Positions 9,045 to 54,584 of a stretch of DNA of 64,000 nucleotides are shown in pieces. The stretch spans positions 556,696 through 620,695 of the forward strand of contig MEMB01000002.1 of NCBI GenBank assembly GCA_001768735.1, given 5' to 3'. Numbering within the stretch: position 1 is the stretch's first letter; every line of letters starts with the position of its first letter. Position numbers and translations under genes: made by a program. The DNA is from Alphaproteobacteria bacterium GWF2_58_20. GTDB lineage: Bacteria > Pseudomonadota > Alphaproteobacteria > UBA1247. The notes under the pieces are model-generated. The model was given only the letters and a program-made list of their open reading frames with translations. It was not told the origin of the DNA and did no database searches.

Positions 9045-9751
9045 AACACATAGCCCTCCCCACGTACGGTTTTAATATGAACAGGATTACGTGGATCATC
9101 CCCCAGCTTTTTGCGAAGACGCGCCACCAGAACATCAATGCTGCGAACATTCATGCCCCCCCCCAGAATGTCCACAAGACTGTCACGGGAAACCGGAGTA
9201 CCCGCCGCGCCAACAAGGGCCGAAAGCAAGGCAGATTCTGCCGCAGGAAGAACTTCCCGCTCCCCTTCCGGGCCCAGCAAAACGCCTTTTTGCGCATCAA
9301 ACCGAAAACCGCCAATCAAGGCGCCGGAAACGGTTTCCGCGCGCCGGGCCCGGCGCAGGATGGCCTCAATGCGCAAAAGAAGTTCGCGCGGTTCAAATGG
9401 CTTGCCCAGATAATCATCCGCCCCCGCTTCAAGACCGCTGATCCGGTCATCCGGCGCACCGCGGGCCGTCAGGAGCAAAATGGGGACATTGCTTTCATTG
9501 CGCAGGCTGCGGGTCAGGGAAAGGCCATCCTCGCCCGGCATCATGATATCCACAATCAGGGCATCAAACTGGAAATCCAGCATCCGGCGCCGCGCTTCCG
9601 CGGCATCGGCCGCCGAAGCCACCACATACCCGTTTTCCGCAAGATACCGGCACAAAAGCGCGCGCAAACGGTCATCGTCATCGACAACCATGATATGTGC
9701 GGGCGGGTTTTGAATCATGTCCTGCATGGCAACTCTTGATTTATCCATCAA
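9032..9751 (-). CDS. OmpR-family response regulator (REC + winged-helix DNA-binding domain)
   Basis: 'IMVVDDDDRLRALL', 'VDIMMPGEDGLSL' and a C-terminal 'IKTVRGEGYVL' wHTH. Overlaps the kinase gene start. The start codon is uncertain (9751, 9748 or 9727). Confidence 0.8.
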   Translation of the reverse strand: MMDKSRVAMQDMIQNPPAHIMVVDDDDRLRALLCRYLAENGYVVASAADAAEARRRMLDFQFDALIVDIMMPGEDGLSLTRSLRNESNVPILLLTARGAPDDRISGLEAGADDYLGKPFEPRELLLRIEAILRRARRAETVSGALIGGFRFDAQKGVLLGPEGEREVLPAAESALLSALVGAAGTPVSRDSLVDILGGGMNVRSIDVLVARLRKKLGDDPRNPVHIKTVRGEGYVLWAA

Positions 9752-38228: not shown

Positions 38229-39488
38229 TCACCACGCCTCGTTGCGGTAACCGCCCCCGGTGGGCCCCTGGCCTGATTTCATGTATTCCTCAAGCCTTTC
38301 ACGCCGTGGAACCACCCGTGCCAGCCCGGCTTCCTCCGCCTTGCGGTAATAGCGCAAGGCTTCATCTCCATCAGCCAGGCCCATGGGGCGACCCATCCGT
38401 TGTGCCACCACAGGATCCTTCAGGTCGGCATAAGCCGCCATGGCTTCCGCATATCCGGCATCCGCTGCCTTCTGGAGGCTGTCCATGGCCTCAATGAGGT
38501 TTCCCTGCTGCAACCGCGCCATGCCGGACTCATAATCCCGCAGGACATGATCCGGGATTTCCGGGATGTTCAGCGGAGCCTCAACTTCAGGAATCACCAT
38601 GTCCTTTTGAGCTTCTTCAGGAAGAAAAACCCCGGAGGCTTCCTCTTTCACAGGTTCCTGCACCTTTTCTTCAGGCGCAGAAGAAGGTTTTGCTGTCATT
38701 TCAGCCGTTTTTTTCTCAACGGGCGGCTTGACAACAACAATGGGGGCATCTTTGGCCCCATGGGGAAGGGAAAGACCATTCGCTCCCCCCATTTTCTCCA
38801 TGAGGAGAGCCCCGCCAGCCGCAAGGGCAAACAGGGGAAGAAGAACCGCAAGCGACTGCCCTACAATCTTGCGCATCCTGTGCGGCGGCCTTGTGGACGC
38901 AATTTCCCGTGGCGGAATATCTTCCGCCATTTTGGCGTGATCTTCCCGCACGGTTGGCGCATCACCATGTCCGGTATATTCTTCCCGTAGGTGGAACAGG
39001 ATATCGTTATCTCCCTTCATGTCGTGGGTGACATATCCCCAAAAGGTCACAACAGGCTGTTCCCCCACAAGAAACACATTTTCCATGCGTTCCGGCACAA
39101 AAAGTGCCTGACGAAGCAACTGTCGCACGTCTTCCCCATCCTGATCCTCTTCTGCCGCCGGGGTGTTTGCCAGGTCCTTCAGCCCCACCAGCATCTCTTC
39201 CACACGGTCCGCAATATGCTTGCGCTGTTCCTGCGTGGCTTCCACCCATGATACAACAGCTCCCTCGCCCGCCGCATACCAATCCATGCTTCCCCCGTCA
39301 TCCGAGAGACGCGGAATGGCAAACAGGTGGGCATGCCCATCTCCCAGACGCTTGGAAATGGCCAAACGAAGTCGCTCTGCCGAGGCGTAAACCGGCTTTC
39401 CCATGACGCCCAGTGCATGATAGCTGCGCACGCTACGGGATTTGATAAGGATTTCCATGGATATTCCCCCTAAAAAGGCAAAAATCAA
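38229..39488 (-). CDS. Hypothetical membrane protein with Pro-rich linker and Sel1/TPR-like C-terminal repeats
   Basis: Central transmembrane segment 'LAVLLPLFALAAGGALLM'. 'PPVEKKTAEMTAKPSSAPEEKVQEPVKEE' linker. C-terminal 'LQKAADAGYAEAMAAYADL...YYRKAEEAGLARV' Sel1-like repeats. The start could be Met at 39458. Confidence 0.45.
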   Translation of the reverse strand: MIFAFLGGISMEILIKSRSVRSYHALGVMGKPVYASAERLRLAISKRLGDGHAHLFAIPRLSDDGGSMDWYAAGEGAVVSWVEATQEQRKHIADRVEEMLVGLKDLANTPAAEEDQDGEDVRQLLRQALFVPERMENVFLVGEQPVVTFWGYVTHDMKGDNDILFHLREEYTGHGDAPTVREDHAKMAEDIPPREIASTRPPHRMRKIVGQSLAVLLPLFALAAGGALLMEKMGGANGLSLPHGAKDAPIVVVKPPVEKKTAEMTAKPSSAPEEKVQEPVKEEASGVFLPEEAQKDMVIPEVEAPLNIPEIPDHVLRDYESGMARLQQGNLIEAMDSLQKAADAGYAEAMAAYADLKDPVVAQRMGRPMGLADGDEALRYYRKAEEAGLARVVPRRERLEEYMKSGQGPTGGGYRNEAW

Positions 39489-40870: not shown

Positions 40871-40947
40871 CGGGGTGTAGCGCAGCCTGGTAGCGCGCGA
40901 GTTTTGGGTACTCGAGGCCCCCGGTTCGAGTCCGGGCACCCCGACCA
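40871..40947 (+). tRNA. tRNA-Pro (anticodon UGG)
   Basis: Cloverleaf CGGGGTG-TA-GCGC-AGCCTGGTA-GCGC-G-CGAGT-TTTGGGT-ACTCG-AGGCC-CCCGG-TTCGAGT-CCGGG-CACCCCG-A-CCA. Confidence 0.9.
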
Positions 40948-41014
40948 TTTTTATGCTGAAAAACGTTTTGCCACCTGTCAGGCCGGGCGCAAAAGAAGAA
41001 ACGGGACCAGCCTT

Positions 41015-41091
41015 GCGCACATAGCTCAGCTGGATAGAGCACAAGCCTTCTAAGCTTGGGGTCGCAGGTTCAAGTCCTGCTGTGCGCGCCA
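41015..41091 (+). tRNA. tRNA-Arg (anticodon UCU)
   Basis: Cloverleaf GCGCACA-TA-GCTC-AGCTGGATA-GAGC-A-CAAGC-CTTCTAA-GCTTG-GGGTC-GCAGG-TTCAAGT-CCTGC-TGTGCGC-G-CCA. Confidence 0.9.
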
Positions 41092-41679
41092 TTCCCGCCC
41101 AAGCTGTTCATGATGCCCTGCAAACCACTGCATGGCGATAACACTGCCTGCGCTGATGAAATCCCCCTTGGCAAACCGCTCCAGCGCCACGCTGACCGAC
41201 AGGACGGAAACCTTAATGTCTTCCTGCTCATGTGCCACACCGCAAATCTCTCCCACAGCGCTGGAATCCGCCTCCCCCACATAAACATGGACCAGCTCGG
41301 AAGATGTTCCCGGAGAAGGCATAAACGCCCCAATCCGCACAAGCCGGCGAAACGGGCATCCAATTTCCTCCTCTCCCTCACGCCGCGCCACGTCTTCCTG
41401 CGTTTCCTCAGGCGACATCATGCCGGCAACAAACCCCAGCACCCACGGATCACGTCCTGCAGCCAAGGCTCCAATGCGGAACTGCTCCGTCACCACGACA
41501 CAATTCCGCACCGGATCATAGGGGAGCACCACAACGGCAACACCGTTTTCCACCACCTCGCGCGGCACGTTGTGAAGCCAGTTTCCTGAAAATCCCTCAT
41601 AATCAAGGGAATAAAGATGTAACTTCAAGTAACCAGAATAACATTCTGTTTTTGAAAGAATTTTAAACTTCTTTTCCAT
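41050..41679 (-). CDS. NUDIX hydrolase (ADP-ribose pyrophosphatase-like)
   Basis: Nudix box 'GMMSPEETQEDVARREGEEEIG' (Gx5Ex7REuxEExGu). The last ~14 codons are antisense to tRNA-Arg, so the true stop is uncertain. Confidence 0.6.
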   Translation of the reverse strand: MEKKFKILSKTECYSGYLKLHLYSLDYEGFSGNWLHNVPREVVENGVAVVVLPYDPVRNCVVVTEQFRIGALAAGRDPWVLGFVAGMMSPEETQEDVARREGEEEIGCPFRRLVRIGAFMPSPGTSSELVHVYVGEADSSAVGEICGVAHEQEDIKVSVLSVSVALERFAKGDFISAGSVIAMQWFAGHHEQLGREWRAQQDLNLRPQA

Positions 41680-44233
41680 ATCTGTACACCTTCAGGAACT
41701 CAAGCCAGAGAACGGCAAAAACACCCCCCGCAAGCGCCAGGAACATATCCATTGGGTGGGGGGCTGAAAAATGGAAAAACACCCGCATGGACGGCACCAG
41801 AAGTGCCACTCCCAGGAAGACGGCAGCCCCTCCAACAACCCACCAGACGGCCGGATTTGGAACACGCAACATGTCCCACATGGTGCGTATTTTTGAACGA
41901 TTGCTGAGGATCAACAGAACATTCCCGATGATCAGCGCAGAGAAGGTCAGGGCACGCAAGGCCGGCGCATCATGTCCGGCGTTCAGGGCCACAAGGAAAA
42001 TCGCCACCAGCATGATTCCTAGGCTAACCCCTTGCAGGAGCCCGGGTGCCATGGCTTCCAACGTAAAGAGGCGCGCCTTGGGCGCACGCGGCTTGCGGTG
42101 CATGATCCCGGGCTCCTCTTGTTCAGCCTCGAAAATGATGGAACAGGCAGGATCAATGATCATTTCAAGGAACGCCACGTGGATGGGCAGCAGCAGAATC
42201 GGAAAATCCGCTGAAAACGTGGGCAGCATGGACAGGAAGATGATGGGGATGTGGATGGCGAACAGATAGTTCATCGCCTCGCGGATATTGTCGTAAATCC
42301 GCCTTCCAAGACGCACCGCCGCAACAATGGAGGAAAAAGCATCATCCAGAAGGACAATATCCGCCGCTTCACGCGCAACATCGGTGCCGCGCGCCCCCAT
42401 GGCAATGCCGATATGGGCCGACTTGAGGGCGGGCGCATCATTCACCCCGTCCCCCGTCATGGCCACCACCTGACCCTGCTTCTTGAGCGCTTCCACAATG
42501 CGGAGCTTTTGTTCCGGCACCACTCGGGCAAACACCGACACCTCCGAGATGCGGGCCGCCAGCGTTTCGTCATCCAGAGCGTCCAGCTCCGGGCCGGTCA
42601 GGATCACGCCCTTTTCAGGAAGCCCGATGACCTTTGCCACATGGCGGGCAGTTTCCGGATGGTCTCCCGTAATCATCACCACGGAAATCCCCGCATTCCG
42701 GCATTCCGCGATGGCTTCCGGAACCCCGTCCCTCACGGGATCCTCAAGCCCTACAAGCCCAAGGAACTGGAACAGCATGCCATGCTGTTCCTGCGGCAGT
42801 TCGCCCCCATTGCACAGCCCCCGCGCCACGCCCAGCACCCGAAGACCGGATTTGGCCATCTCCGCAACCACCTCCCCAATCGGCGCATATTCCTCCGCCG
42901 ACATGTGGCACAAGTCGGCAATGGCTTCCGGCGCACCCTTGGCCGCCACCGCATCACACGCATCTCCCTTGGCCCGCACCCAGACATGCGACATGGCCAG
43001 GAGCGATGACGTCAGGGGATACTCCCGCATCAGCTCCCAGTTGTCATGCCAGTGTTCGGTTTTGAGCAGGTAAGCCTTTCCAACCTCGCGCAACGCCTTT
43101 TCCATGGGATCGAATGGATCCTTGTTGCTGGCAAGGATTCCATATTCCAGCAGGGCATGGAAATCTTCCGGCAAATTCCCTGATGGCTCCTTGGGAATTT
43201 CAAAATTTCCACCATTTTTGGCCCATATTTTCCGTAACGTCATCTGGTTGCGGGTGAGCGTCCCCGTCTTGTCAACACAAAGAACGGTGGCAGCCCCCAG
43301 CATCTCCACTGCGGGCATGCGCCGCGTCAGGACCTTCACACGCGAAATGCGCCACGCACCAAGCGCCAAGAACACGGTCAAGACAACCGGAAATTCTTCG
43401 GGCACAACCGCCATGGCCATGGTCAGTCCGGCCAGCAGGCCATCCCGCCATGAAACCATGCCTCCCCCACGGGAAAAGGCATAAGCCACAACAACCACCC
43501 CGCAAAGCGACAGGCCAACAACCGCAAGAATGCGCACAAGACGACCCGTTTCCCGTTGCAGAAACGTTTCTTCCTGCGTCAGGGAGGCCAGCGCCTTGCC
43601 AATTTTTCCTATTTCCGTCCGGGCACCGGTGGCTACCACTTCGGCAACCCCCTGCCCCTTGGTGACCATGGTTCCGGAATAAACCATGGGCAGACCATCG
43701 CCGCCGGGCCGCGGCAAGGGATTGGGAATCAACTGTGTTTCATCCTTGCGGACAGGAACGGATTCCCCCGTCAGGAGGGATTCATCCACCGACATTCCAA
43801 TCGCCTGAATCAGGAAGGCATCCGCAGGAACACGGTCACCTTCGGCCAGAAGCATGATATCGCCCCGGACAACAGCCTTGCCGGCAATGCGCCTTTCCTG
43901 GCCATCCCGGATGACCAGTGCGCGCGGGCTCGAAAGATCCCGCAGGGCATCCAGCGCATGTTCCGTCCGGCGCTCCTGGACAATGGTGATCCCCATGATA
44001 AAAACCACAAAACTGAGCAGGATCAGGGCATCCTGAACATGTCCTGTCGCAAGGTAGATGCCGCCACATGCCATAAGCAGGAGAAACATGGGTTCGCGCA
44101 CAACTTCAAGCGCAATGGCAAAAACGCCGCTGCGCCTGGCCGAAGGCAGTTCATTCAGGCCTTCAGAAACCAGTCGTTGCTGCGCTTCATCCTCGGAAAG
44201 ACCGGAGATTTTCTTGACGTCAAGCATGTGCAC
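41663..44233 (-). CDS. Cation-transporting P-type ATPase (type II, Ca2+/Mg2+-ATPase-like)
   Basis: 856 aa. Phosphorylation motif 'CVDKTGTLTRNQMT'. Hinge 'MTGDGVNDAPALKSAHIGIAMG'. TGES-like 'LTGESVPV'. About 10 transmembrane helices. Confidence 0.85.
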   Translation of the reverse strand: MHMLDVKKISGLSEDEAQQRLVSEGLNELPSARRSGVFAIALEVVREPMFLLLMACGGIYLATGHVQDALILLSFVVFIMGITIVQERRTEHALDALRDLSSPRALVIRDGQERRIAGKAVVRGDIMLLAEGDRVPADAFLIQAIGMSVDESLLTGESVPVRKDETQLIPNPLPRPGGDGLPMVYSGTMVTKGQGVAEVVATGARTEIGKIGKALASLTQEETFLQRETGRLVRILAVVGLSLCGVVVVAYAFSRGGGMVSWRDGLLAGLTMAMAVVPEEFPVVLTVFLALGAWRISRVKVLTRRMPAVEMLGAATVLCVDKTGTLTRNQMTLRKIWAKNGGNFEIPKEPSGNLPEDFHALLEYGILASNKDPFDPMEKALREVGKAYLLKTEHWHDNWELMREYPLTSSLLAMSHVWVRAKGDACDAVAAKGAPEAIADLCHMSAEEYAPIGEVVAEMAKSGLRVLGVARGLCNGGELPQEQHGMLFQFLGLVGLEDPVRDGVPEAIAECRNAGISVVMITGDHPETARHVAKVIGLPEKGVILTGPELDALDDETLAARISEVSVFARVVPEQKLRIVEALKKQGQVVAMTGDGVNDAPALKSAHIGIAMGARGTDVAREAADIVLLDDAFSSIVAAVRLGRRIYDNIREAMNYLFAIHIPIIFLSMLPTFSADFPILLLPIHVAFLEMIIDPACSIIFEAEQEEPGIMHRKPRAPKARLFTLEAMAPGLLQGVSLGIMLVAIFLVALNAGHDAPALRALTFSALIIGNVLLILSNRSKIRTMWDMLRVPNPAVWWVVGGAAVFLGVALLVPSMRVFFHFSAPHPMDMFLALAGGVFAVLWLEFLKVYRYGKEV

Positions 44234-44309: not shown

Positions 44310-46646
44310 TCAATCCTCGTAACGGGTGCAGCGGATATACACCCCCGCATTCTTGACAAGCCAGCTGAGCTCCCTTGCGCTGCCAGAGAGCCACGTCGAG
44401 ACGGAATAGGCTATATTGTAGCCAGTTTCCTCGCTTGACCAATACATGGCATTGTTATCGATCGTCCCATATTCAAAAGTCCCGCTGGAATCATTGGCGT
44501 CAATGGTTCGGGTGATCTTGTCGCGTGTTACAAGATGCTCCCACCCCAGCATCGTCCGAAGCTGCAGCTTGCCGGGCAGGAACCAGTCGGAGCGACCGTG
44601 CGCCACAAGGTCATGGCAGTATTTTGCTGCCTGGTATGGGGATCCGGCATCAGACAGGGCGGCAAGGATGGGGGTTGCAACTTCGCCATCTGTGCCGGCG
44701 GGAATGGAGGCCAACGTCCAGTTTTCCGTTCCATTGTTCCATGTTTTGCTGGTTTGCGTGCTGGCATCTGTCGTGAACAATTTCCTGCCATCGAAAACCC
44801 CAATAAAGAAACTTCCATCAAGGCATTTGGTTCCCGGCATGGGAATGCCTTCCTCACAGGTTGCCGGCTCAACATTGAGAGTAAAATTCAGCCTGGTTTT
44901 CTTGGGGAAGATCGCAGCATTGTCACTCACTTCCACATATGCCGAGACAGTTCCCGTCTGCTCAAAATTGTTTGGACTACCAAGAGATGGCGCCGGAGTC
45001 GACACCGTAAAGGAACCACTGATGTTGTTGTCTGCACTGCTCCAGGATGTCTGATCCAGGACGGGGAGAAAGCTGTATGCCGACGCACTTGCCACTGCCG
45101 TCAGGGCCTGAACAGGCTCCGATGCATCCGCAGCCTCGAAGTAAAATGTATAATCCTGACCCGTCTTGATGGTAGCAGAAACCGGATTCCCGCCTGAAGA
45201 AACGACCGGAGGTGGATTGAACGGAAACACCTGCACGTTGACGGGAAACGGATCACTATCCATAAAGCCGTCATTGGCCACAAAGGAAAGGATTGTTGAA
45301 CCGGTTTCCACATAATTCCCTACAGCAACTGTCACAAACACAAAGTGCGTTGCGCCCATGGATATTGCAAGCGGATGGTTGGCCACAACCATGACATTTG
45401 TCCAATTTACAGTGGAAATACCATCATCCGTAGAGAAGGATGGAACAACCGAGACCGTCTGGCCGGCATCCGGTTCATTGATCATGAAAATGATGTTCCT
45501 TGCTGTTCCGGATTCCACATCGACATCTGTCGGAGACATACTCCACGCCATGGGTACAGGCAGGTTGTTGACAAAGACATCAAACGTCTGGGAGACAGTT
45601 TGCCCCTTCCCGTCGGTGGCCGTAACCCGGATACTGCTGGTTCCGGCATCGCTGACGGCCGGCGTTCCAGAAAAGGCCGCGCCATCAAAGCCCATCCAGG
45701 CCGGCAGGGCGGAACCATCAGCAAGGCTGGCCGAAAGGACATAGCTTTCGGTATCGATAAATGCCCCGGCCGGAATGGCATAGCTGAGGGAGGTTCCAAC
45801 GGCAACGACAACATTTTCCAGCGCGTCCCCAACTTCTGGAGGAGGATTGTAATTGGAGAACGTCTGGAAACGCCATGTCCCGGCGTCGATTCCCGCAAAG
45901 GAATGGCCAGCGCCATCCATCAGGCTTCCCGATGGGACAATAACTTCATACTCCGTATTTTCCTCAAGCTCTCCCGTGTAATCCAGCACGACAACATCAT
46001 CCACGAAAAGCACAATCGATGGGTCAGTGACAGCGAGACTGTCAAAAACATCTCCTCCCAAAACCTTGCGGATGATGATATTCCCGGTTCCGGGCAAAAC
46101 CCTTTCACTCATTTCCAGGCGCAGTTCAGACACCACGGGCACACCGGTCGCCCCTGAAACAGGATCAAGGGAAACAAGGGTTGGCGCCGTGCTGTCCAAT
46201 GTGGAAAATGCCCATGTTGTGCTGCCAGAAAAGCCGGGATAGGGATATCCATCATCCGACTGTAGCGCGCCGGGCGGAATTTCCACGTAATAGGATTCTC
46301 CTTCATCCAGCGCCGAAAATGGCAGGATGGCTTCATCCCCGGAAATGATGACCGAAGATGCCAGCAGGATATCAGCTTCACTGCCATCGCTTGCATACCG
46401 CAGCCTGATGTTTCCCGTACCCGCCTTCATGTCTTTTGAAAACTTCATGACCAGCGCAGTGTGGGGAGAAACCCCGGATGCACCATTGACTGGCGACAGG
46501 GACAGGATGCGGATGTCCGCCGGATTTTCATCCATGCAGCCCGTGACGTTGTCGCAGACCGGAATGGGGCGGCGCACCATGGGGGCCGCCCGGGCAAGGG
46601 ACGGAAAAAGAACGACGAGAAGGATGAGCGAAAAACGACTTGTCAT
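44310..46646 (-). CDS. Large secreted surface protein: SbsA/cadherin-like Ig repeats + C-terminal DUF1566 (Lcl C-terminal) domain
   Basis: Signal peptide 'MTSRFSLILLVVLFPSLARA'. Repeated 'LxVTATDGKGQTVSQTFDVFV'-type Ig/putative-Ig repeats. C-terminal 'DWFLPGKLQLRTMLGWEHL...YWSSEETG...AGVYIRCTRYED' matches the DUF1566 pattern (LP..EL..L / YWSST / V.CVR). Confidence 0.6.
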   Translation of the reverse strand: MTSRFSLILLVVLFPSLARAAPMVRRPIPVCDNVTGCMDENPADIRILSLSPVNGASGVSPHTALVMKFSKDMKAGTGNIRLRYASDGSEADILLASSVIISGDEAILPFSALDEGESYYVEIPPGALQSDDGYPYPGFSGSTTWAFSTLDSTAPTLVSLDPVSGATGVPVVSELRLEMSERVLPGTGNIIIRKVLGGDVFDSLAVTDPSIVLFVDDVVVLDYTGELEENTEYEVIVPSGSLMDGAGHSFAGIDAGTWRFQTFSNYNPPPEVGDALENVVVAVGTSLSYAIPAGAFIDTESYVLSASLADGSALPAWMGFDGAAFSGTPAVSDAGTSSIRVTATDGKGQTVSQTFDVFVNNLPVPMAWSMSPTDVDVESGTARNIIFMINEPDAGQTVSVVPSFSTDDGISTVNWTNVMVVANHPLAISMGATHFVFVTVAVGNYVETGSTILSFVANDGFMDSDPFPVNVQVFPFNPPPVVSSGGNPVSATIKTGQDYTFYFEAADASEPVQALTAVASASAYSFLPVLDQTSWSSADNNISGSFTVSTPAPSLGSPNNFEQTGTVSAYVEVSDNAAIFPKKTRLNFTLNVEPATCEEGIPMPGTKCLDGSFFIGVFDGRKLFTTDASTQTSKTWNNGTENWTLASIPAGTDGEVATPILAALSDAGSPYQAAKYCHDLVAHGRSDWFLPGKLQLRTMLGWEHLVTRDKITRTIDANDSSGTFEYGTIDNNAMYWSSEETGYNIAYSVSTWLSGSARELSWLVKNAGVYIRCTRYED

Positions 46647-46669
46647 GAAAACATGTCCTGTAACAGGGA

Positions 46670-47227
46670 TCAGGGAAACACCGGATCGGTCATGAAAAGA
46701 TATTGGGAATTGTCCATGCAGCAGGGATCGTTGCGGTCAAACAGCGGATTCCATGCCGAACGGTCGGCCGGGTCGAAGCAGGTGCGCAGGCAGTGCTTGT
46801 TGCACCCTTCCGGGGCCTGCGTGTTTTTTGGGGTGCAGCCTGCCATTTCCGCATCGGCGCAACGCGCTTCCGCATCCAGCCCCAGCTTCTTGCGCATGGT
46901 GAGGCACAATCTTATGGATTTCTGGGAATCCGGAAGGGAGAGGACGGCATATCCCCGTCGCACTTCCCATGCTTCCCCGCTTTCATCCACAGGAACCTCA
47001 AGAAGATAGTTCTTTGAAAGGAGGTCCGTAAGCCCCGCAGGCACAACCCGCTCCTGGTTGGCATAAAGGGCGGCGGAGCTCACAATCTGGTCACCCGCAG
47101 CCAAAACGCGCATGGCCGAAGCTTCCTCTTGGTATTTGTTGTAGGCGCTGCCACCATAAAAGACGGCAATGACAGACACGGTGGCAACCAGCGCCACAGC
47201 GATGACCGTCAGGATCAGGTTGGCCAT
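46670..47227 (-). CDS. Hypothetical N-terminally membrane-anchored Cys-rich protein
   Basis: N-terminal helix 'MANLILTVIAVALVATVSVIAVFYGG'. C-terminal region has 9 Cys ('CADAEMAGCTPKNTQAPEGCNKHCLRTCFDPADRSAWNPLFDRNDPCC'). Confidence 0.45.
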   Translation of the reverse strand: MANLILTVIAVALVATVSVIAVFYGGSAYNKYQEEASAMRVLAAGDQIVSSAALYANQERVVPAGLTDLLSKNYLLEVPVDESGEAWEVRRGYAVLSLPDSQKSIRLCLTMRKKLGLDAEARCADAEMAGCTPKNTQAPEGCNKHCLRTCFDPADRSAWNPLFDRNDPCCMDNSQYLFMTDPVFP

Positions 47228-47422
47228 GGCCAGCTCCCCCTTCTGCTTGTCAAGAACCTTCCCTGCAACCTATAAAGCGACTTCCCTACCCCGTCAACTC
47301 ATCTTGCGGAGAAGGCTGCATGGCTTGTGCCAAGTGAAAAATATCCAGCAAGGTCTTCCTGCCATGCACAAACAACCAAGGGTTGACCTGCGCATCATCG
47401 CCACTTCCCCATTTTCGCCTTT

Positions 47423-48421
47423 TCAGGGCGATGGCGCCAGGAACAGCTTTCGTCCCCTGTCAAAATGTGCAACCAGCTGCTGGCTGGCGCGGTGGAGTTT
47501 TTCATCCTCCCGCAGAATGGCCGTTGCCTGGGTATCATCCCCAAACGTCATCATCATGACGGAGAGCTTCAACACCCGGCGCTTGAATTGCCACGCCCCA
47601 TACGAAGGACGAACTTGCGCAAAAACAGCCTCGGAAAAAGCAAGGCGCTGTTCTTCGTCCAGTGTCCTGACATGCGGCAGGACTTTTTCAATCAGGTCCG
47701 CCGCCTTTTCAAGCTCCGTTCCATGATTGTAAAGGGAAGCTTCCGCCTCGGCCATAACATTGCCGCCAAACATCCCCTGCGCCACGGAATTGTAACAAGA
47801 CACTGTCCGGATTTTGGCAACAATGCGCGCCACATCTGCATTTCCGGACACGAAGGCCCTGTCAACCGCCGCAAAAACGTCAGCCCGCAATTCAGAAGCC
47901 GCCCTGCGATAATCATCGCCCTGCCTTTCCGGATCCAGCACGACATCACGTTCCGTGCCATGTCCCAAGGTTTCATGGGCCAGGGAAAATGTATTCAATT
48001 CCAGCTCGGACACAGGAAACGGGGAAACAAGTTTTGCCCCCCAGGTTTTCAGGAACTGGTTGAACATGTCCCTTTCATCACCCCCCGGATGATTGGGAAG
48101 CACAATGCGAAACCAATCCTGGGAAGCATCAGGAATGCGGGCGCATTGCCCCAGCGTATGGCAGGTGGCCTGACGCTGGATATCAGGCGCAACAATTTCT
48201 GCACTTTCCGCATCCAGGCCAACGATTTCTTCCAGCTGTTTCCGGATATAATCTGTTGATTTCCCGGCCCTGAACCGGTCGAAAACAACAACAGGCCGCC
48301 CCAGCTTCCTGATTTTTCTTTGGTATTCATCAACAATCCGGGCATGATCTTCCGGCGATTCCGCAAGCGCGGAAGATGTCAGCATCCCCAGCAGAAGGGT
48401 GATGGCTGCGAGCTTCCTCAT
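47423..48421 (-). CDS. Hypothetical secreted protein with conserved 'HETLGH' and 'SELRAD' motifs
   Basis: Signal peptide 'MRKLAAITLLLGMLTSSALA'. Shares a ~90-aa block with the upstream gene ('FSLAHETLGHGTERD...YRRAASELRADVFAAV' versus 'SVLDHEAFGHALDPEK...QALSELRADISQVV'). 4-nt start/stop overlap with the upstream gene. Confidence 0.5.
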   Translation of the reverse strand: MRKLAAITLLLGMLTSSALAESPEDHARIVDEYQRKIRKLGRPVVVFDRFRAGKSTDYIRKQLEEIVGLDAESAEIVAPDIQRQATCHTLGQCARIPDASQDWFRIVLPNHPGGDERDMFNQFLKTWGAKLVSPFPVSELELNTFSLAHETLGHGTERDVVLDPERQGDDYRRAASELRADVFAAVDRAFVSGNADVARIVAKIRTVSCYNSVAQGMFGGNVMAEAEASLYNHGTELEKAADLIEKVLPHVRTLDEEQRLAFSEAVFAQVRPSYGAWQFKRRVLKLSVMMMTFGDDTQATAILREDEKLHRASQQLVAHFDRGRKLFLAPSP

Positions 48422-49731
48422 TTTGGCGCAGGCTCCGGAAACAGGTGCGGCTTGCGGATGAGTGTCCGTATCCTGTGGTCACTTCCCATTACGTAATGAT
48501 ATTGACGGGCCGCGTCAGCCACCCGCAGGAGTTTCATGGCCGGATTGCAGAGTTCAGGTGCATCACGCTCAAGCCTTCTGGTCTGCGGCCCCACCCGATG
48601 GCTGCCATCCTGATTCATGCCATCAAGGAACATGCGGGCAGCCGCATCCAGCACTTTCGCCCTTTGCAGAAACTGTCCGCGGGTAAAGCGTTCCTTTGCG
48701 GCTTCCTCATCCACCAGGGCATCCAGCGCATCATCATCCATGCGGAAAAAGGCGGCGGCGCGCGCGGGATCCTCCAGCCGCACCTCCAGCCGGTCGACCA
48801 CCGAATCCAGCGCGCCGCCGTTGTTGTAGATATTGTCCATGCGTACATAACCAGCCTTGCCATTCTGGATATGCCGCAGCGCCCGGTTGAGCGCTCCCAG
48901 CGAGCGCAAGCCCGCCCATGCCCGCGCCGCAATGGTGGAATGATGTTCCTTTACCAGCCGGACAACCTGCGAAATATCGGCCCGCAACTCTGACAGCGCC
49001 TGCGGCATGAGGTATCCGGACATCTTGGATTCATATATCTTCTCCGGATCAAGGGCGTGGCCAAACGCCTCATGATCAAGAACGGAATGCTCCATTCCTT
49101 CATCGGAAAGGGGCAAATCCGTTGCCACAACAAACCCTGGCAAATCCTGATTGCAAACGATCTGTACCGTTTCCTCGACAAAGGTCCCCGGAGGGAAAGG
49201 AACGGCAAAGAAAATCTTTTCCTCCTCCATACCAAACAAAAGTGATGACAGGGTAGGAATATCAAACGGAATGCAGCACGCCCCCTCGGTTTCCGGCACC
49301 TGTATTTTCAGCCTGGATGCCAAAATTTCCGCCATATCGTCCTTCGCAAGCGGGAAAAGGCCGCGCTCATCAAAAAAGCGCTTGAGGCGCGCCCGCAGCT
49401 TTTTCTCGTCTGGAAGGGTTTCCTCGCGGTCAATGACCAACACGTTATGTCCCTTGACGTTATGCAGGAGACGTCGATTAAAAGCCTCCACCACCTTTCC
49501 CTGCTGGGTTTTCGGGCGGAGGGGCGGCAGTTTCCTGGGAACGGAATCCCAGGTAAACCTGGCGGCTGTCATGAGACAGTGAAGGAAAACGCTTCCCACG
49601 GAAACTTTCAAGGCAAATACAAAAAGTTCCTGGAAACGATGCCACATTCCAACCTTGTCGGGAGGATTTCCGTCACCCGGTTTCCCCGTGCTTCCCTTGG
49701 CAAAAAACGCGCGCAGACGCTCAAGCACCAC
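48418..49731 (-). CDS. Hypothetical protein, paralogue of the downstream secreted protein ('HEAFGH...SELRAD')
   Basis: 437 aa with no clear signal peptide. Conserved block as described for 47423..48421. First gene of a four-gene minus-strand cluster. Confidence 0.5.
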   Translation of the reverse strand: MVLERLRAFFAKGSTGKPGDGNPPDKVGMWHRFQELFVFALKVSVGSVFLHCLMTAARFTWDSVPRKLPPLRPKTQQGKVVEAFNRRLLHNVKGHNVLVIDREETLPDEKKLRARLKRFFDERGLFPLAKDDMAEILASRLKIQVPETEGACCIPFDIPTLSSLLFGMEEEKIFFAVPFPPGTFVEETVQIVCNQDLPGFVVATDLPLSDEGMEHSVLDHEAFGHALDPEKIYESKMSGYLMPQALSELRADISQVVRLVKEHHSTIAARAWAGLRSLGALNRALRHIQNGKAGYVRMDNIYNNGGALDSVVDRLEVRLEDPARAAAFFRMDDDALDALVDEEAAKERFTRGQFLQRAKVLDAAARMFLDGMNQDGSHRVGPQTRRLERDAPELCNPAMKLLRVADAARQYHYVMGSDHRIRTLIRKPHLFPEPAPK

Positions 49732-49876: not shown

Positions 49877-49964
49877 TGGAAAAGCCTTATGATGACCAAC
49901 GATGCCTGCCAAAAATCTGGCGGGCGCAAATTGTCAATATCCAAGGACAAGGCAGGACACGCAC

Positions 49965-52900
49965 ATGAGTGACACCAGCGGCATGATCACAGTTGACGGC
50001 AACGAAGCGGTTGCCTCTTCCGCCTACCGGATGAACGAGCTTTCCATCATCTATCCCATCACCCCCTCTTCCTCCATGGGCGAACACGCCGACGATTGGT
50101 CGTCCAAAGGTCGCAAAAACCTCTGGGGCGTGGTTCCCGGCGTTGTGGAAATGCAGTCTGAAGCTGGCGCAGCTGGTGCCGTACATGGCGCCCTGACCTC
50201 CGGGGCCATCACCACCACCTATACCGCATCACAGGGTCTCCTCCTGATGATTCCCAACATGTTCAAGATCGCGGGCGAACTCACCCCCTTAGTGATGCAT
50301 GTCTCGGCGCGGGCCATTGCCACGCATGCCCTGTCCATCTTCGGCGACCATTCCGATGTCATGTCCTGCAGACAGACCGGCTTTGCCATGCTCTGCTCCG
50401 GCTCCCCGCAGGAAGGCCATGACTTTGCCGCCATTGCGCAAGGTACCACCTTCAAGTCACGCATCCCGTTCATGCATTTCTTTGACGGTTTCCGCACCAG
50501 CCATGAAATCAACAAGATTGCGCCCCTGTCCGATGACCAGCTCCGCGCCATGATCGATGCGGAAGACATCAATGCCTTCCGCGCCCGCGCCCTGACACCG
50601 GAAGCGCCATCCATTCGTGGCACGGCGCAGAACCCCGACGTCTTTTTCCAGGCCCGAGAAGCCTGCAACAGCTTCTATGATGCCTGCCCCGGCATCCTCC
50701 AGCAGATGATGGACCGTTTTGCAACGCTCACGGGCCGCGCCTACCACTTGGTGGATTATGTGGGCCATCCGGAAGCTGAACGCGTCATGGTCATCATGGG
50801 ATCCGGCGCGGAAATCGCCCACGAGACGGTGGAATTCCTTGCGGCCAAGGGAGAAAAGGTGGGCGTGGCCAAAATCCGCCTCTACCGCCCCTTCCCGGCC
50901 GGGGAACTGCTGGCCGCCCTTCCGGCCTCCGCCAAGTCCATTGCCGTGATGGATCGCACGAAGGAACCGGGCGCCACTGGCGAACCCATGTATCTGGATG
51001 TCGTCTCCGCCTTTGCCGAACGCGGCGGAACCATGCCCACCATCATCGGCGGACGCTATGGTCTTTCCTCCAAGGAATTCACGCCCGCCATGGTCAAGGC
51101 CGTGTTTGATGAAATGGCCTCGGCAACCCCGAAGCGCCACTTCACCGTGGGCATCAACGATGACGTCACCCACCTGTCCCTTCCTGTGGATGCCAGCTTT
51201 GACATCGAACCGGACAATGTGGTGCGGGCCGTATTCTACGGCCTTGGCTCGGACGGTACCGTCGGCGCCAACAAAAACTCGATCAAGATCATTGCCGAAG
51301 AAGGCGATTCGTTTGGCCAGGCCTATTTTGTCTATGATTCCAAAAAATCGGGCGCCATCACCACCTCGCACCTGCGCTTCAGCACCCATCCCATCCGTTC
51401 AAGCTACCTCATCCACAGCGCGCAGTTCGTCGCCTGCCACCAGTTCCCCATGCTGGAACAGATCGATGTTCTGGGTATTGCGGCACCGGGTGCCACCTTC
51501 CTGCTCAATGCCCCCTTCCCCACAGAAGACGTCTGGGGACATCTCCCCCGCGAAGTGCAGGATGCCATCATTGCCAAGAAGCTCAAGGTTTACGTGATTG
51601 ATGCCACCAACGTGGCCCAGGCCAACGGCATGGGACGCCGCATCAACACCATCATGCAGACCTGTTTCTTTGCCCTGGCGGGCATCATGCCGCGCGATGT
51701 GGCCATTGAAAAGATCAAGAAATCCATTGAAAAAACCTATGGCCGCAAGTCTCATGAAATCGTGGAGAAAAATTTCAAGGCCGTGGATGACACCCTTATC
51801 CACCTGCATGAACTTTCCATCCCGCAGGAAGCCAGCTCCACCCATGGCCGCCGCAAGCCTGTGCCCGACACGGCACCGGAATTCATCCGCAAGGTTACCG
51901 GGGAAATCATTGCCGGACGCGGAGAAACCCTTCCGGTCAGCGCCTTCCCGGTGGATGGCACCTGGCCATCCGGCACCTCACGCTATGAAAAACGCAACCT
52001 TGCCCTTTCCATTCCCCTCTGGGATCCGGAACTCTGCATCCAGTGCGGCCGCTGCGCAATGGTGTGCCCGCACGGTTGCCTGCGCACCAAGGTGGCGGAT
52101 GCCGAAACCGTGGCCAAGGCCCCGGAAGGTTTCCGTTCAGCCGACTTCAAGGGCAAGGAATTTGGCGAAAACCAGAAGTTCATTGTCCAGATTTCCCCGG
52201 AAGATTGCACGGGATGCACCCTCTGCACCGATGCCTGCCCGGCCAAGGACAAGACAAATCCAAGCCGCAGGGCCATCAACATGGAAGAACAGCTTCCGGT
52301 GCTGGAACGCGAGAAGGCCAACTGGGCTTTCTTTGAATCCCTGCCATCCGTCCCGCGTGACAAGGTTGCGCTAACCCCCAACCGCATCATGCTGCTGGAA
52401 CCGCTGTTTGAATTCTCCGGTGCCTGCGCTGGCTGTGGTGAAACATCTTACATCAAGCTCATGACGCAGATGTTCGGTGATCGCGCCATGGTTGCCAATG
52501 CCACTGGTTGCTCCTCCATCTATGGTGGCAACCTGCCCACAACCCCCTATTGCATGAATGCGGAGGGGCATGGTCCCGCCTGGGCCAATTCCCTGTTTGA
52601 GGACAATGCCGAGTTCGGGCTTGGCATGCGTGCCGCCTGCGACAGCAACACCATGTTTGCGCAGGCACTTGTCCGCACCCTCTCCGAAAAGATCGGTTCC
52701 GATCTGGCGACGGCCCTTGTGGAAGCCGTCCAGCTTGATGAAGCCGGGATTGCGGCCCAACGGCAGCGAATCAAGACCCTCAAGGCGCGCCTGGCCGGAA
52801 TGGGTGACCTCCCCGAGGCCAAGACCCTTCTCTCCATTGCCGACAGCCTTGTGCGCAAGAGCGTATGGATTGTGGGAGGAGATGGCTGGGCCTATGACAT

Positions 52901-53531
52901 TGGCTACGGCGGCCTTGACCATGTCCTGAGCTCTGGCCGTGATGTCAACATCCTTGTGCTGGATACCGAAGTGTATTCCAACACCGGCGGCCAGCAATCC
53001 AAGGCAACCCCCATTGGCGCTTCGGCCAAGTTTGCCGTTGCCGGTCGGCAAGCCCCCAAAAAGGACCTGGGCATGGAAGCCATGTCCTATGGCAATGTTT
53101 ATGTGGCCCAGATCGCCATTGGCGCAAAAGGACCACAGACCATCAAGGCCTTCCAGGAAGCCGAATCCTTTCCCGGCCCATCGCTCATCATTGCCTACAG
53201 CCACTGCATCGCGCATGGATATGACCTTTCCAAAGGCCTTACCCAGCAGCAGTTGGCCGTAGATTCCGGCCACTGGCCCCTCTACCGCTATGATCCGCGA
53301 CGGTTTGAACAAGGCTTGCCTCCCCTCCAGCTGGATTCCAGCGAACCGAAGATTCCGCTGGTGGACTACATGCGCAACGAAACCCGCTTCCGCATGGTGG
53401 AAAACCAGAACCCGGAACACTTCAAGGTTCTGGTGGAATCCGCCGAAAAATTTGCACGGTTGCGTTACAGCCGTTACAAATTCCTGGCAGGCTTCACCGA
53501 TCCTGCTTCAACAAAAACAGAAAACACGTGA
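49965..53531 (+). CDS. nifJ: Pyruvate:ferredoxin (flavodoxin) oxidoreductase, single-polypeptide NifJ/PFOR type
   Basis: 1189 aa from ATG 49965. 'ITVDGNEAVASSAYRMNELSIIYPITPSS' N-terminus. Two ferredoxin-type 'CIQCGRCAMVCP' / 'CTGCTLCTDACP' clusters. TPP-binding 'GGDGWAYDIGYGGLDHV'. Confidence 0.9.
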   Translation: MSDTSGMITVDGNEAVASSAYRMNELSIIYPITPSSSMGEHADDWSSKGRKNLWGVVPGVVEMQSEAGAAGAVHGALTSGAITTTYTASQGLLLMIPNMFKIAGELTPLVMHVSARAIATHALSIFGDHSDVMSCRQTGFAMLCSGSPQEGHDFAAIAQGTTFKSRIPFMHFFDGFRTSHEINKIAPLSDDQLRAMIDAEDINAFRARALTPEAPSIRGTAQNPDVFFQAREACNSFYDACPGILQQMMDRFATLTGRAYHLVDYVGHPEAERVMVIMGSGAEIAHETVEFLAAKGEKVGVAKIRLYRPFPAGELLAALPASAKSIAVMDRTKEPGATGEPMYLDVVSAFAERGGTMPTIIGGRYGLSSKEFTPAMVKAVFDEMASATPKRHFTVGINDDVTHLSLPVDASFDIEPDNVVRAVFYGLGSDGTVGANKNSIKIIAEEGDSFGQAYFVYDSKKSGAITTSHLRFSTHPIRSSYLIHSAQFVACHQFPMLEQIDVLGIAAPGATFLLNAPFPTEDVWGHLPREVQDAIIAKKLKVYVIDATNVAQANGMGRRINTIMQTCFFALAGIMPRDVAIEKIKKSIEKTYGRKSHEIVEKNFKAVDDTLIHLHELSIPQEASSTHGRRKPVPDTAPEFIRKVTGEIIAGRGETLPVSAFPVDGTWPSGTSRYEKRNLALSIPLWDPELCIQCGRCAMVCPHGCLRTKVADAETVAKAPEGFRSADFKGKEFGENQKFIVQISPEDCTGCTLCTDACPAKDKTNPSRRAINMEEQLPVLEREKANWAFFESLPSVPRDKVALTPNRIMLLEPLFEFSGACAGCGETSYIKLMTQMFGDRAMVANATGCSSIYGGNLPTTPYCMNAEGHGPAWANSLFEDNAEFGLGMRAACDSNTMFAQALVRTLSEKIGSDLATALVEAVQLDEAGIAAQRQRIKTLKARLAGMGDLPEAKTLLSIADSLVRKSVWIVGGDGWAYDIGYGGLDHVLSSGRDVNILVLDTEVYSNTGGQQSKATPIGASAKFAVAGRQAPKKDLGMEAMSYGNVYVAQIAIGAKGPQTIKAFQEAESFPGPSLIIAYSHCIAHGYDLSKGLTQQQLAVDSGHWPLYRYDPRRFEQGLPPLQLDSSEPKIPLVDYMRNETRFRMVENQNPEHFKVLVESAEKFARLRYSRYKFLAGFTDPASTKTENT

Positions 53532-53542
53532 GGTTCGGGTCC

Positions 53543-54562
53543 ATGAAAACCAGTGTCACCTATCTTGGCCTTCCCCTTTCCTCTCCCCTGATTGCCGGAG
53601 CTTCTCCGCTGGGTCAGGAACTGGATACGCTCAAGCGCCTGGAAGATTCGGGAGCGGCCGCCGTTGTCCTCCCTTCCCTGTTTGAAGAAGAAATCAAGCA
53701 GCGGCAGAGGGAAACCATCACCTCGCTTGATGAGGCTCCGGCCTTCGAGGAATCCCAGAGCTTCTTCACCGAACCTCCCATGCTCAGCTATGGCCCGGAC
53801 GCCTACCTTGAACATGTCCGCAAGGTCAAGGAAGCCCTTGGCATCCCTGTCATCGCCTCGCTCAACGGTACATCCAACGACAGCTGGGTGAATTATGCCC
53901 GCCAGATTGAGGAAGCCGGGGCCGATGCCCTGGAACTCAACCTTAATATCTTTGCGGCAAATCCGCATGAAACCAGCACAAGCATTGAGCAGCGTCTCAT
54001 TTCCATCATACGTCACATCCGGTCTGGCTGCGGACTTCCGCTTGCCGTCAAGATTTCCCCGCAATTCACCGCCCTTGCCAACCTGGCTTCGCAGATGGAA
54101 GCCGTAGGCGCCCGTGGCCTTGTCATGTTCAACCGCTTTTTCCAGCCGGAAATCGATATTGAAAATCTTTCCATCCAACGCAAGCTGAAACTGTCCACCT
54201 CAGCCGAGCTTCCCCCGCGCCTGGCCTGGCTTTCTGTCATGTCCGGCACGGGAACCGGTCTTTCGCTTTCGGTTTCTGGCGGTGTGCATACGGGCGAGGA
54301 TGTCATCCGCAGCATCATGAGCGGCGCGGATACCGTGCAACTGGTGTCTGCCCTCATCAAGAAGGGGCCGGAATACATAGGCTTCCTCAAGGCTGGCTTG
54401 ACCCGCTGGATGGAAGAACATGAATATGCTTCCATTGATGCCATGCGCGGCAGCATGAACCTGGCACGTTGCCCGGATCCATCTGCCTATCTGCGTGTAA
54501 ATTACATGAACATGCTGCACAGCTGGAAATATGATCCATCTGCGCAGGACGCAGAAGCCTGA
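53543..54562 (+). CDS. Dihydroorotate-dehydrogenase-family FMN TIM-barrel protein (PyrD/PreA-like catalytic subunit without a ferredoxin domain)
   Basis: 'YLGLPLSSPLIAGASPLG', 'IPVIASLNGTS', 'ADALELNLNIF' and 'LSVSGGVHTGEDVIRSIMSGADTVQL' match DHOD class-1 family motifs. No C-terminal CxxCxxC. 11 nt after por. Confidence 0.6.
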   Translation: MKTSVTYLGLPLSSPLIAGASPLGQELDTLKRLEDSGAAAVVLPSLFEEEIKQRQRETITSLDEAPAFEESQSFFTEPPMLSYGPDAYLEHVRKVKEALGIPVIASLNGTSNDSWVNYARQIEEAGADALELNLNIFAANPHETSTSIEQRLISIIRHIRSGCGLPLAVKISPQFTALANLASQMEAVGARGLVMFNRFFQPEIDIENLSIQRKLKLSTSAELPPRLAWLSVMSGTGTGLSLSVSGGVHTGEDVIRSIMSGADTVQLVSALIKKGPEYIGFLKAGLTRWMEEHEYASIDAMRGSMNLARCPDPSAYLRVNYMNMLHSWKYDPSAQDAEA

Positions 54563-54584
54563 ACAACAATCCCAGGTAGCAGAC

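Follow-up and report, generated by a model that had tools for sequence, protein, structure and literature searches.

Two gene modules at an alphaproteobacterial locus: a previously unannotated, probably gluzincin-type protein family beside a pilin-like protein paired with a probable adhesin

The window analysed here is a 64-kb stretch of a contig from an uncultured bacterium, Alphaproteobacteria bacterium GWF2_58_20, for which a free-living, anaerobic life in an aquifer has been described. The listing of its open reading frames (ORFs) contains a cluster of four minus-strand genes, here called P1 to P4 (Table 1), which lie at the coordinates given to them in a first-pass annotation of the sequence, and the ATGA overlap reported there between P1 and P2 is likewise present. 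A gap of 23 bp separates P3 from P4. The longer spacer between P2 and P3 holds a weak promoter-like sequence (TTGACG-17 nt-TATAGG, read by eye) and a single weak terminator-like hairpin; a structured RNA in the spacer was ruled out by a fold z-score of -0.55. The first-pass annotation had also described the cluster in terms of neighbouring tRNA genes, but these are encoded on the opposite strand, a NUDIX gene and a P-type ATPase gene stand in between, and no connection with the cluster is evident. A tRNA-adjacent genomic island was ruled out as well, given that the dip in GC content is slight (0.52–0.57 versus 0.55–0.61), that the two intervening genes are ordinary and that the synteny of the cluster with a PFOR gene is kept in a relative. 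Scans of the four proteins with PADLOC and PHROG lend no support to a phage or defence-system origin.

Table 1. Positions of the P1–P4 genes, their motifs and neighbouring features in the 64-kb window
Feature	Position	Strand	Remarks
P1	48418..49731	-	437 aa; GTG start; GGAGG ribosome-binding site 7 nt upstream
P1 hydrophobic segment QELFVFALKVSVGSVFLHCLMTAAR, ~residues 34-58	49558..49632	-	Kyte-Doolittle 1.97; predicted membrane anchor
P1 motif 1, HEAFGH (H220, E221, G224, H225)	49057..49074	-	proposed two zinc-binding His and catalytic Glu
P1 motif 2, SELRAD (E248, R250, A251, D252)	48976..48993	-	proposed third zinc ligand, on the next helix
P2	47423..48421	-	332 aa; start overlaps P1 stop (ATGA)
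P2 motif 1, HETLGH (H149-H154)	47960..47977	-	
P2 motif 2, SELRAD (E177-D181)	47879..47896	-	
P2-P3 spacer	47228..47422	-	195 bp
Weak terminator-like hairpin in P2-P3 spacer	47364..47346	-	consensus match only
P3	46670..47227	-	185 aa
P3 N-terminal hydrophobic helix MANLILTVIAVALVA...	within 46670..47227	-	
P3 8-Cys C-terminal region	46906..46718	-	
P4	44310..46646	-	778 aa
P4 DUF1566/Lcl_C-like domain	44663..44322	-	sub-threshold Pfam match
tRNA-Pro and tRNA-Arg genes	40871-41091	+	3.2 kb from cluster

P1 and P2 had been taken for paralogues, and this is borne out by BLASTP (E = 2e-8, 24% identity over 243 aa) and by common HExxGH and SELRAD blocks that go far beyond chance; P2 scores 275 bits against the profile of the family. 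The family is very rare, with 44 clusters found in a profile search of 1.84 billion representative proteins, although the window genome alone carries at least six copies and tandem arrays of two to four diverged paralogues are found at three places (L002, L003/L004 and L010/L011). No family match was obtained for P1, P2 or P3 in scans of Pfam, NCBIfam, PADLOC and PHROG, in keeping with the initial impression that none of the three belongs to a recognised family, and a Pfam scan of 45 members of the P1/P2 family found no family for them either. Sequence searches of the PDB with two profiles of the family returned nothing meaningful, DPP III included. The alignment of the 45 sequences has a mean column identity of only 14%, but in it H220, E221, H225 and E248 (P1 numbering) are invariant, and A251 is kept in 43 of the 45, G224 and R250 in 42 each and D252 in 41; R276 is at least 90% conserved. 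An N-terminal motif and a Pro-rich C-terminal tail are conserved in the family too. The HExxGH...SELRAD block singled out at first reading makes up the family's conserved core, although the gap between its two parts is 21 residues rather than about 25, which places His-225 and Glu-248 23 residues apart.

The AlphaFold model of P1 (pLDDT 86.2, pTM 0.82) shows four short strands followed by a helix (residues 210-225) whose C-terminal end is formed by HEAFGH, and a further helix (241-263) that carries E248 and D252. The model has the thermolysin-like catalytic-domain fold of the gluzincins (clan MA, subclan E) together with their ligand layout, a His-Glu-His helix with a Glu ligand on the following helix and an Asp four residues on, and its structural neighbours are gluzincin zinc peptidases, with no match better than E = 0.4 in a Foldseek comparison with the PDB. 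Since a conserved motif is placed on this helix/helix arrangement and the structural neighbours are gluzincins, a catalytic metal site is the best reading of it, which supports the earlier proposal of HExxGH/SELRAD as a candidate metal or catalytic site. The gluzincins of clan MA(E) taken for comparison, M1 (LTA4H, APN, F3), M32 carboxypeptidase, M36, M13 (PepO, neprilysin), M48 (BepA) and M4 (thermolysin), all use HEXXH, whereas P1 and P2 have HEXXGH with one extra residue between the His residues. No sequence similarity to these families is detectable, and the C-terminal helical domain of P1 (residues ~265-415) finds no specific match among them. We read the P1/P2 family as one of gluzincin type that had not been annotated before.

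With regard to export, P1 does lack a signal peptide, as had been stated, but its hydrophobic segment, which falls inside a long helix of the model (26-62), had been missed, and the protein is probably membrane-anchored via this N-terminal helix. Many homologues have WW[KR][KR] and then a clear transmembrane (TM) helix in the same place. P2, expected to be secreted, has a predicted Sec-type signal peptide (residues 1-20, ...SSALA/ES). Roughly half of the family shows neither an obvious TM helix nor an obvious signal peptide, and an extracytoplasmic location therefore does not hold for all members.

P3 possesses an N-terminal hydrophobic helix, first read as a membrane anchor, and eight Cys residues, not nine. 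Its model, of moderate confidence (pLDDT 62.7, below 50 in the Cys-rich part), is that of a type IV pilin or pseudopilin of non-canonical kind and shows the lollipop fold of such proteins, in which an N-terminal helix of at least 50 residues is packed on a beta-sheet domain; CFA/III CofA, EpsG/PulG, PilA, TcpA and the minor pilin PilE were used for comparison. P3 differs from type IV pilins and pseudopilins in its unique, strongly conserved and poorly modelled 8-Cys C-terminal region, which ends in DPVFP. The prepilin signature is absent from P3 and from its homologues (no leader, no Gly(-1) and no Glu(+5) in 9/9), all nine of which begin M[AS]N[LM][IL][LV][TS]VIA with N3 invariant. P3 has no Pfam pilin match, and PDB sequence searches with P3 and P4 gave nothing meaningful. 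At one locus (L031) the P3 homologue is followed, after 37 bp, by a T2SSE (GspE/PilB-type) ATPase gene (5.8e-89), which is the sole trace of type IV filament machinery in the other P3 loci examined; within the 64-kb window there is neither an assembly ATPase gene nor a canonical prepilin gene.

P4 is laid out as a signal peptide, an RRPIPVC-x5-C motif, two Big_5 domains, He_PIG, further Ig-like repeats and a C-terminal DUF1566/Lcl_C-like domain. Its signal peptide and Ig-like repeats had been recognised correctly, and the Pfam matches to Big_5 (6e-26) and He_PIG (2e-13) are solid; the DUF1566 assignment, on the other hand, stays below the Pfam gathering score of Lcl_C (PF07603), with 19.1 bits for the whole protein and 22.7 for the C-terminus alone against 34.9. 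The P4 homologue at L006 passes that score with 36.0 bits. Legionella Lcl, the namesake of Lcl_C, is a surface-exposed adhesin dependent on type II secretion, and a role in carbohydrate recognition or trimerisation has been proposed for its DUF1566 domain. What P4 has in common with Lcl/DUF1566 proteins and Big_5/He_PIG adhesins is a signal peptide, Ig-like repeats in tandem and a DUF1566-like domain at the C-terminus; unlike Lcl, it has no collagen-like repeats. P4 is probably an adhesin.

The distribution of the four genes separates them into two groups. The P3-P4 pairing is kept at L001, L005, L006, L008, L013, L014, L025-L028 and L030, and at most other loci the P3 homologue is directly upstream of a gene for a giant signal-peptide protein; P3-class proteins are consistently coupled to very large repeat proteins and are in one case fused, the homologue bearing a ~740-aa extension. 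Proteins partnered with P3 homologues also keep the N-terminal RRxIxxC...C motif of P4, which in several that lack Lcl_C is the only common element. P1/P2-type genes, by comparison, are found beside a P3/P4 pair in just two places, the window and a close relative (L001), which share the five-gene synteny PFOR, P1, P2, P3, P4, and we therefore regard the cluster as two modules rather than as a proven four-gene system. At about a dozen further loci with P3, no P1/P2-family gene is present within up to 7-9 kb, where contigs reach, and the arrays L003/L004, L010/L011 and L012 stand without P3 or P4. Two unannotated genes upstream of P3 at L006 were considered as degenerate family members and rejected (no HMM hit, hhalign probability 0.7%). 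The single four-gene surface system of the first-pass annotation, which was to be given up should the genes not co-occur in other genomes, has largely lost its ground in this way. Its mechanistic form, in which P1 and P2 would mature, trim or release P3 and/or P4 as LapG does LapA or as adhesin pro-peptides are processed, could draw on the common strand and order of the genes, the shortness of both spacers, the synteny recurring in L001 and the prediction that all four products are extracytoplasmic; since the co-occurrence is confined to two closely related genomes, and the spacer between P2 and P3 holds both a weak terminator-like hairpin and a weak promoter-like site, we consider it improbable.

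The observed ORFs, paralogy, motif conservation, fold neighbours and gene-pair conservation lead us to favour, with somewhat better than even confidence, a cluster of two adjacent modules, with P1 and P2 as coupled zinc metallopeptidases and P3 and P4 as a conserved pair of a pilin-like protein and a probable adhesin. P1 and P2 would be translationally coupled through the ATGA overlap. In each, one zinc would be held by the His pair of HExxGH and the Glu of ELRAD (H220, H225 and E248 in P1; H149, H154 and E177 in P2), and for peptidase activity a water molecule would be activated by the motif Glu (E221 in P1, E150 in P2), while the Asp four residues past the ligand Glu (D252 in P1, D181 in P2) may orient a His ligand, as in the thermolysin-type ExxxD arrangement. 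As to topology, P1 would be tethered to the inner membrane by its N-terminal helix and P2 exported by its signal peptide, from which we infer a periplasmic site of action for both, with peptides or envelope proteins as substrates. In the other module, the 8-Cys region of P3 presumably forms disulfides, and P3 most likely interacts with P4 by anchoring or presenting it at the surface via machinery of the type IV filament or type II secretion-like kind whose genes lie elsewhere.

The closest parallel to the P1/P2 site is found in DPP III, peptidase family M49, whose published signature consists of HEXXGH and EEXR(K)AE(D) 22-55 aa downstream. HEXXGH has been described as a unique signature of DPP III, and in one paper DPP III structures used as fold-search queries retrieved other DPP IIIs only. 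The first-pass annotation had found that the motif was not that of a textbook HExxH zincin and had recognised no family; it missed that P1 and P2 carry the two-motif M49 signature, save the first Glu of its second motif, with the spacing of the Bacteroides enzyme. Both proteins have the M49 hexapeptide (HEAFGH and HETLGH), with a near-invariant Gly as the extra residue before the second His as in DPP III, and both have the 23-residue His-to-Glu spacing of B. thetaiotaomicron DPP III (ligands H448, H453 and E476); SELRAD keeps the ligand Glu, the Arg, the Ala and the Asp of the second motif. In comparison with the solved structures (B. thetaiotaomicron 5NA6, Corallococcus 5ZUM and human 3FVY), P1 and P2 are roughly half as long (330-440 aa versus 537-737 aa), and the model has one lobe rather than the two of M49, the four short strands of P1 leaving no room for the lower beta-barrel lobe. 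DPP III is cytosolic, while P1 and P2 have a TM anchor or a signal peptide and occur in a family with tandem paralogue arrays. A further reading, possible but less likely than not, is that the family is homologous to the catalytic lobe of DPP III, standing free of the other lobe and mostly exported. It would then be a second HEXXGH peptidase family and a compact form of M49 from before the second lobe was acquired.

That P1 and P2 are genuine, highly diverged and truncated M49 members, DPP III enzymes releasing N-terminal dipeptides, is a stronger claim to which we give little credence. Besides size, missing lobe, predicted location and the silence of the PDB searches on DPP III, conservation does not extend to the first Glu of EEXRAE, none of the 45 family members matches Pfam Peptidase_M49 (PF03571) even at E <= 10, and hhalign of the family with M49 profiles (of 2 and 9 sequences) aligned just 14-17 columns around the motif at 6.5-10% probability, these profiles being of the eukaryote-like, long-spacing type only, as the contig scan gave Planctomycetota eukaryote-like enzymes.

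Equally hard to credit is the idea that these proteins make up a diversifying set of effector- or toxin-like proteases directed against other cells, and not one of housekeeping envelope peptidases. The tandem arrays, the copy number in the window genome and the many members without Sec signals would suit it, as would the fusion of one member to an APH/kinase-like domain and the ankyrin-repeat protein adjoining the L003 array, and the conserved N-terminal motif and Pro-rich tail could be targeting signals; but no secretion-system or immunity-like small genes were seen beside the arrays, the PADLOC and PHROG scans gave no hits, the organism is described as free-living, and P1 and P2 themselves carry ordinary Sec-type export signals. 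Least probable of all is a convergent or relic metal site in some other hydrolase, an oxidase or a metal-binding structural or regulatory protein, for the catalytic Glu and the three ligand positions are kept in 45/45 sequences and the ExxxD arrangement is conserved too, which is what selection for zincin-type hydrolysis predicts.

Considering that the P1/P2 family escapes Pfam, NCBIfam and PDB sequence searches, every copy of it is now annotated as hypothetical. The sources are uncultured aquifer and metagenomic bacteria and the evidence is computational, so that the practical impact will be modest until activity is shown. For peptidase specialists, a compact family of 330-440 aa with a DPP III-like two-motif zinc site at the same spacing would be a new family to classify, and one that would merit its own MEROPS family if the reading as a catalytic-lobe homologue is true; its small size would also make it a tractable scaffold on which to study the working of the one-residue helix insertion and the origin of M49. 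In the P3-P4 pair we see signs of a class of pilin-like proteins not recognised before, which carry an 8-Cys tail and lack the prepilin signature; the pairing may represent a new way of displaying adhesins.

Four open reading frames are arranged head to tail along the minus strand (see the table), as the first-pass annotation had claimed apart from minor corrections: the genes of two paralogous HExxGH...SELRAD proteins (P1 and P2), of a pilin-like 8-Cys protein (P3) and of an Ig-repeat surface protein with a DUF1566-like C-terminus (P4). The order from the pyruvate:ferredoxin oxidoreductase (PFOR) gene through P1 to P4 is also present in a close relative (locus L001), the GC dip at the cluster is slight, and we see no link between the cluster and the tRNA genes. 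Identical proteins are recorded for a "Rhodospirillaceae bacterium" MAG under the locus tags DCW68_01745 to DCW68_01755. The name Alphaproteobacteria bacterium GWF2_58_20 is attached to a paralogue from that MAG as well, and this organism has been described as an aquifer bacterium with anaerobic traits. Among the neighbours, a mechanically listed NUDIX ORF (41050-41679, minus strand) overlaps with its 3' end the tRNA-Arg gene (41015-41091, plus strand) by ~40 bases. Further ORFs lie at 38229-39488 and, after PFOR, at 53528-57986, 57983-59923 and 60006-61097; a 344-aa DHO_dh-like protein and a 1151-aa Pyr_redox_2 protein are encoded downstream of PFOR, and the 646-aa, 363-aa and 419-aa ORFs of the same list match nothing in Pfam at E <= 1e-5.

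Features of the P1-P4 locus and its neighbours in the window
Feature	Position	Strand	Remarks
P1	49731..48418	-	437 aa; GTG start, GGAGG ribosome-binding site 7 nt upstream
P1 N-terminal motif region	49731..49650	-	shared family motif
P1 Pro-rich C-terminal tail	48456..48421	-	shared family tail
P2	48421..47423	-	332 aa; ATG overlaps P1 stop as ATGA
P3	47227..46670	-	185 aa; 195-bp spacer before P3
P4	46646..44310	-	778 aa; 23-bp spacer before P4
PFOR gene	49902-53531	opposite to cluster	upstream of P1
P-type cation ATPase gene	44233..41663	- (same as cluster)	downstream of P4
NUDIX gene		- (same as cluster)	downstream of cluster, with P-type ATPase gene
tRNA-Pro and tRNA-Arg genes	40871-41091	+	3.2 kb from cluster

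P1 and P2 are related to each other (BLASTP E = 2e-8, 24% identity over 243 residues) and belong to a very small family. Word-based searches of 5.8 billion proteins returned P1 and P2 themselves and one relative each, nothing more; searching all 1.84 billion cluster representatives with a HMMER profile gave 44 clusters at E <= 1e-3. Apart from the APH kinase-like part of one member, the 45 aligned sequences show no match to any Pfam family; NCBIfam, PADLOC and PHROG hold no match for P1 or P2 and a PDB sequence search found none for the family, bearing out the initial impression that the two proteins fit no recognised family. The mean column identity of the alignment is only 14%, and the shared block noticed at first proves to be the conserved core of the family (consensus R..LYHE.FGHGTE ... 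ELRADIAA): H220, E221, H225 and E248 (P1 numbering) are invariant, G224, R250, A251, D252 and R276 are conserved in at least 90% of the sequences, and Y302 is kept in 39 of the 45. In one 733-aa member (L012:10001-12202) a HELIGH...ELRAD domain is joined to an APH/choline-kinase-like phosphotransferase domain; its gene adjoins dnaN and ParDE toxin-antitoxin genes.

The first-pass annotation correctly remarked that this block is not the HExxH of a textbook zincin, but it missed that H-E-x-x-G-H is the published hallmark of peptidase family M49, that of dipeptidyl-peptidase III (DPP III). In the Bacteroides DPP III the zinc ligands are H448, H453 and E476; the Glu follows the second His at a distance of 23 residues in this enzyme, in P1 and in P2 alike. 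One paralogue in the genome of the window (L003:5958-7199) has the pentapeptide HELAH in place of HExxGH while keeping ELRAD, which parallels the HEXXGH/HEXXH alternation of M49, where HEXXH variants have been reported for the enzymes of Caldithrix and Corallococcus.

The AlphaFold2 model of P1, built from the 45-sequence alignment, is confident (pLDDT 86.2, pTM 0.82). A long N-terminal helix (residues 26-62) is followed by four short strands (96-99, 152-158, 171-177 and 200-202), a helix (210-225) with HEAFGH exactly at its end, a short helix, a further helix (241-263) bearing E248 and D252, and an all-helical C-terminal domain, an order of elements that we take to be that of the gluzincin catalytic domain, as in thermolysin-type enzymes. 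The fold-neighbour scores are modest: 6.9 for LTA4H, 6.3 each for tricorn factor F3, a cold-active aminopeptidase and an M32 carboxypeptidase, 6.2 for aminopeptidase N, 6.1 for M36, 5.8 for PepO, 5.5 for BepA, 5.3 for thermolysin and 4.8 for a second DPP III (5yfb_A). The assignment of P1 to a gluzincin-like fold is well supported; the geometry of its zinc site is a prediction.

We interpret P1 and P2 as acting in the manner of gluzincin zinc peptidases, with a metal site of the M49 type, and as forming a new family in the clan. A sister relationship of this family to the catalytic lobe of M49, as opposed to convergence, seems to us possible but rather doubtful. Outright membership of M49, to which motif and spacing might point, is not indicated on present evidence: no family member matches Pfam Peptidase_M49 even at E <= 10, and hhalign of the family against M49 profiles rebuilt from PDB-verified human and fungal sequences and, separately, from eight bacterial loci aligned only 14-17 columns round HExxGH at a probability of 6.5-10%; both profiles are confined to the long-spacing, eukaryote-like type, which limits the sensitivity of the comparison. 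DPP III is moreover about twice as long as P1 and P2, the P1 model has no room for its lower lobe, and the first Glu of the M49 EEXRAE motif is not conserved in the family.

P2 has a typical signal peptide (...SSALA/ES) and P1 a hydrophobic helix spanning residues ~34-58, and many homologues have an N-terminal [KR]L..FL...PVEV..GG.P, then WW[KR][KR] and a clear TM helix, an arrangement that places their catalytic domain, by prediction, on the extracytoplasmic side; roughly half of the family members have no export signal. A Pro-rich C-terminal tail, in which one Pro (P436 in P1) is invariant, is present in nearly all members; this tail and the N-terminal motif could be targeting or regulatory signals. 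Tandem arrays are typical, with two copies each in the window, L001 and L002 and four each in L003/L004 and L010/L011. Since L003/L004 is from the same genome as the window (MAG GCA_003485165.1), that genome has at least six copies. The L003 array (L003:4527-10857, the same as L004) encodes paralogues of 415, 413, 429 and 402 aa; a 109-aa ORF lies between copies, there may be a fragment after them at 9158-9619, and genes nearby encode an ankyrin-repeat protein as well as a DUF6782 protein that has a HEMTH motif. The paralogues of L010:6022-10281 (the same as L011; 381, 379, 373 and at least 285 aa) are without TM helices or signal peptides. This array comes after cysS and a SpoU methylase gene, in a metagenome that is also the source of several P3 homologues.

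P3 and P4 are a separate conserved pair. All nine P3 homologues in the protein collection share the start M[AS]N[LM][IL][LV][TS]VIA and, at the other end, a region with 8 Cys that is strongly conserved (...C..HC[LM]RTC...DPCC..N...DPVFP). P3 lacks the leader, Gly(-1) and Glu(+5) of type IV prepilins; GspK, PilX and similar minor pilins of the tip are likewise not known to have Glu(+5). A pilin-like role is supported by gene context. At L031:294-2564 the gene of a GspE/PilB-family ATPase (PF00437, 5.8e-89) comes 37 bp downstream of a P3 homologue (38% identity); no other locus ties P3-type proteins to the machinery of type IV filaments. At L025:7001-9781 an in-frame fusion joins a homologue to a further ~740 aa (927 aa in all), and the next gene (L025:9791-14554) encodes a giant protein like P4, with at least 1588 aa. 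The assembly Ga0154589 has at least three P3 copies (L025, L027 and L028).

At nearly every other P3 locus a very large signal-peptide protein is encoded next; lengths run from 408 aa or more, where contigs are truncated, up to 1813 aa for a stop-to-stop ORF. A two-Cys motif directly follows the signal peptide in P4 (46586..46530) and in most of these partners, as RRPIPVC-x5-C in the window, L001 and L006 and FRRRI..C in L005, L008, L013 and L025-L028, and is kept even where the remaining protein differs; it may be where P3 makes contact. P4 has two Big_5 domains, a He_PIG domain and a DUF1566-like C-terminus scoring below the Pfam threshold, and scans of the partners in L005, L006 and L008 confirmed domains of Ig type there too (He_PIG, Big_9, Cadherin_5). 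Lcl, the namesake of the Lcl_C/DUF1566 domain, is an adhesin of the cell surface that depends on type II secretion. Upstream of the pair in L006 are two paralogous unannotated genes (L006:5047-6997; 325 and 320 aa), whose products are not relatives of P1 and P2; their ends, ...PAPAPK and ...PTPAPK, resemble the ...PEPAPK of P1.

The first-pass annotation had suggested that the four genes look like one secreted or surface system, an interpretation that is not supported in this part, as P1/P2-type genes flank P3-P4 only in the window and in L001, whose P3 is 76% identical to that of the window; its observations stood with minor corrections and its interpretation was partly right. We found no P1/P2-family genes in twelve metagenomic P3 loci (up to 7 kb per side where the contig allowed) or in the P3 loci L005, L006, L008, L013 and L014, and no P3 at the family arrays L003/L004, L010/L011 and L012. 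The 195-bp spacer between P2 and P3 shows no notable RNA structure; the terminator-like hairpin and the promoter-like site that it contains are both weak. Adjacency in these two genomes would fit a functional link in which P1/P2 trim or release P4, for example, but comparative genomics does not require such a link and we hold it to be quite improbable. Most likely, P1 and P2 are a membrane-tethered and a soluble periplasmic zinc peptidase, predicted members of a new gluzincin family that is very rare and has a metal site of the DPP III type, adjoined by an independent pilin-like/adhesin pair. The interest of the locus is moderate and lies mainly in peptidase classification and in the study of type IV filament-associated adhesins.
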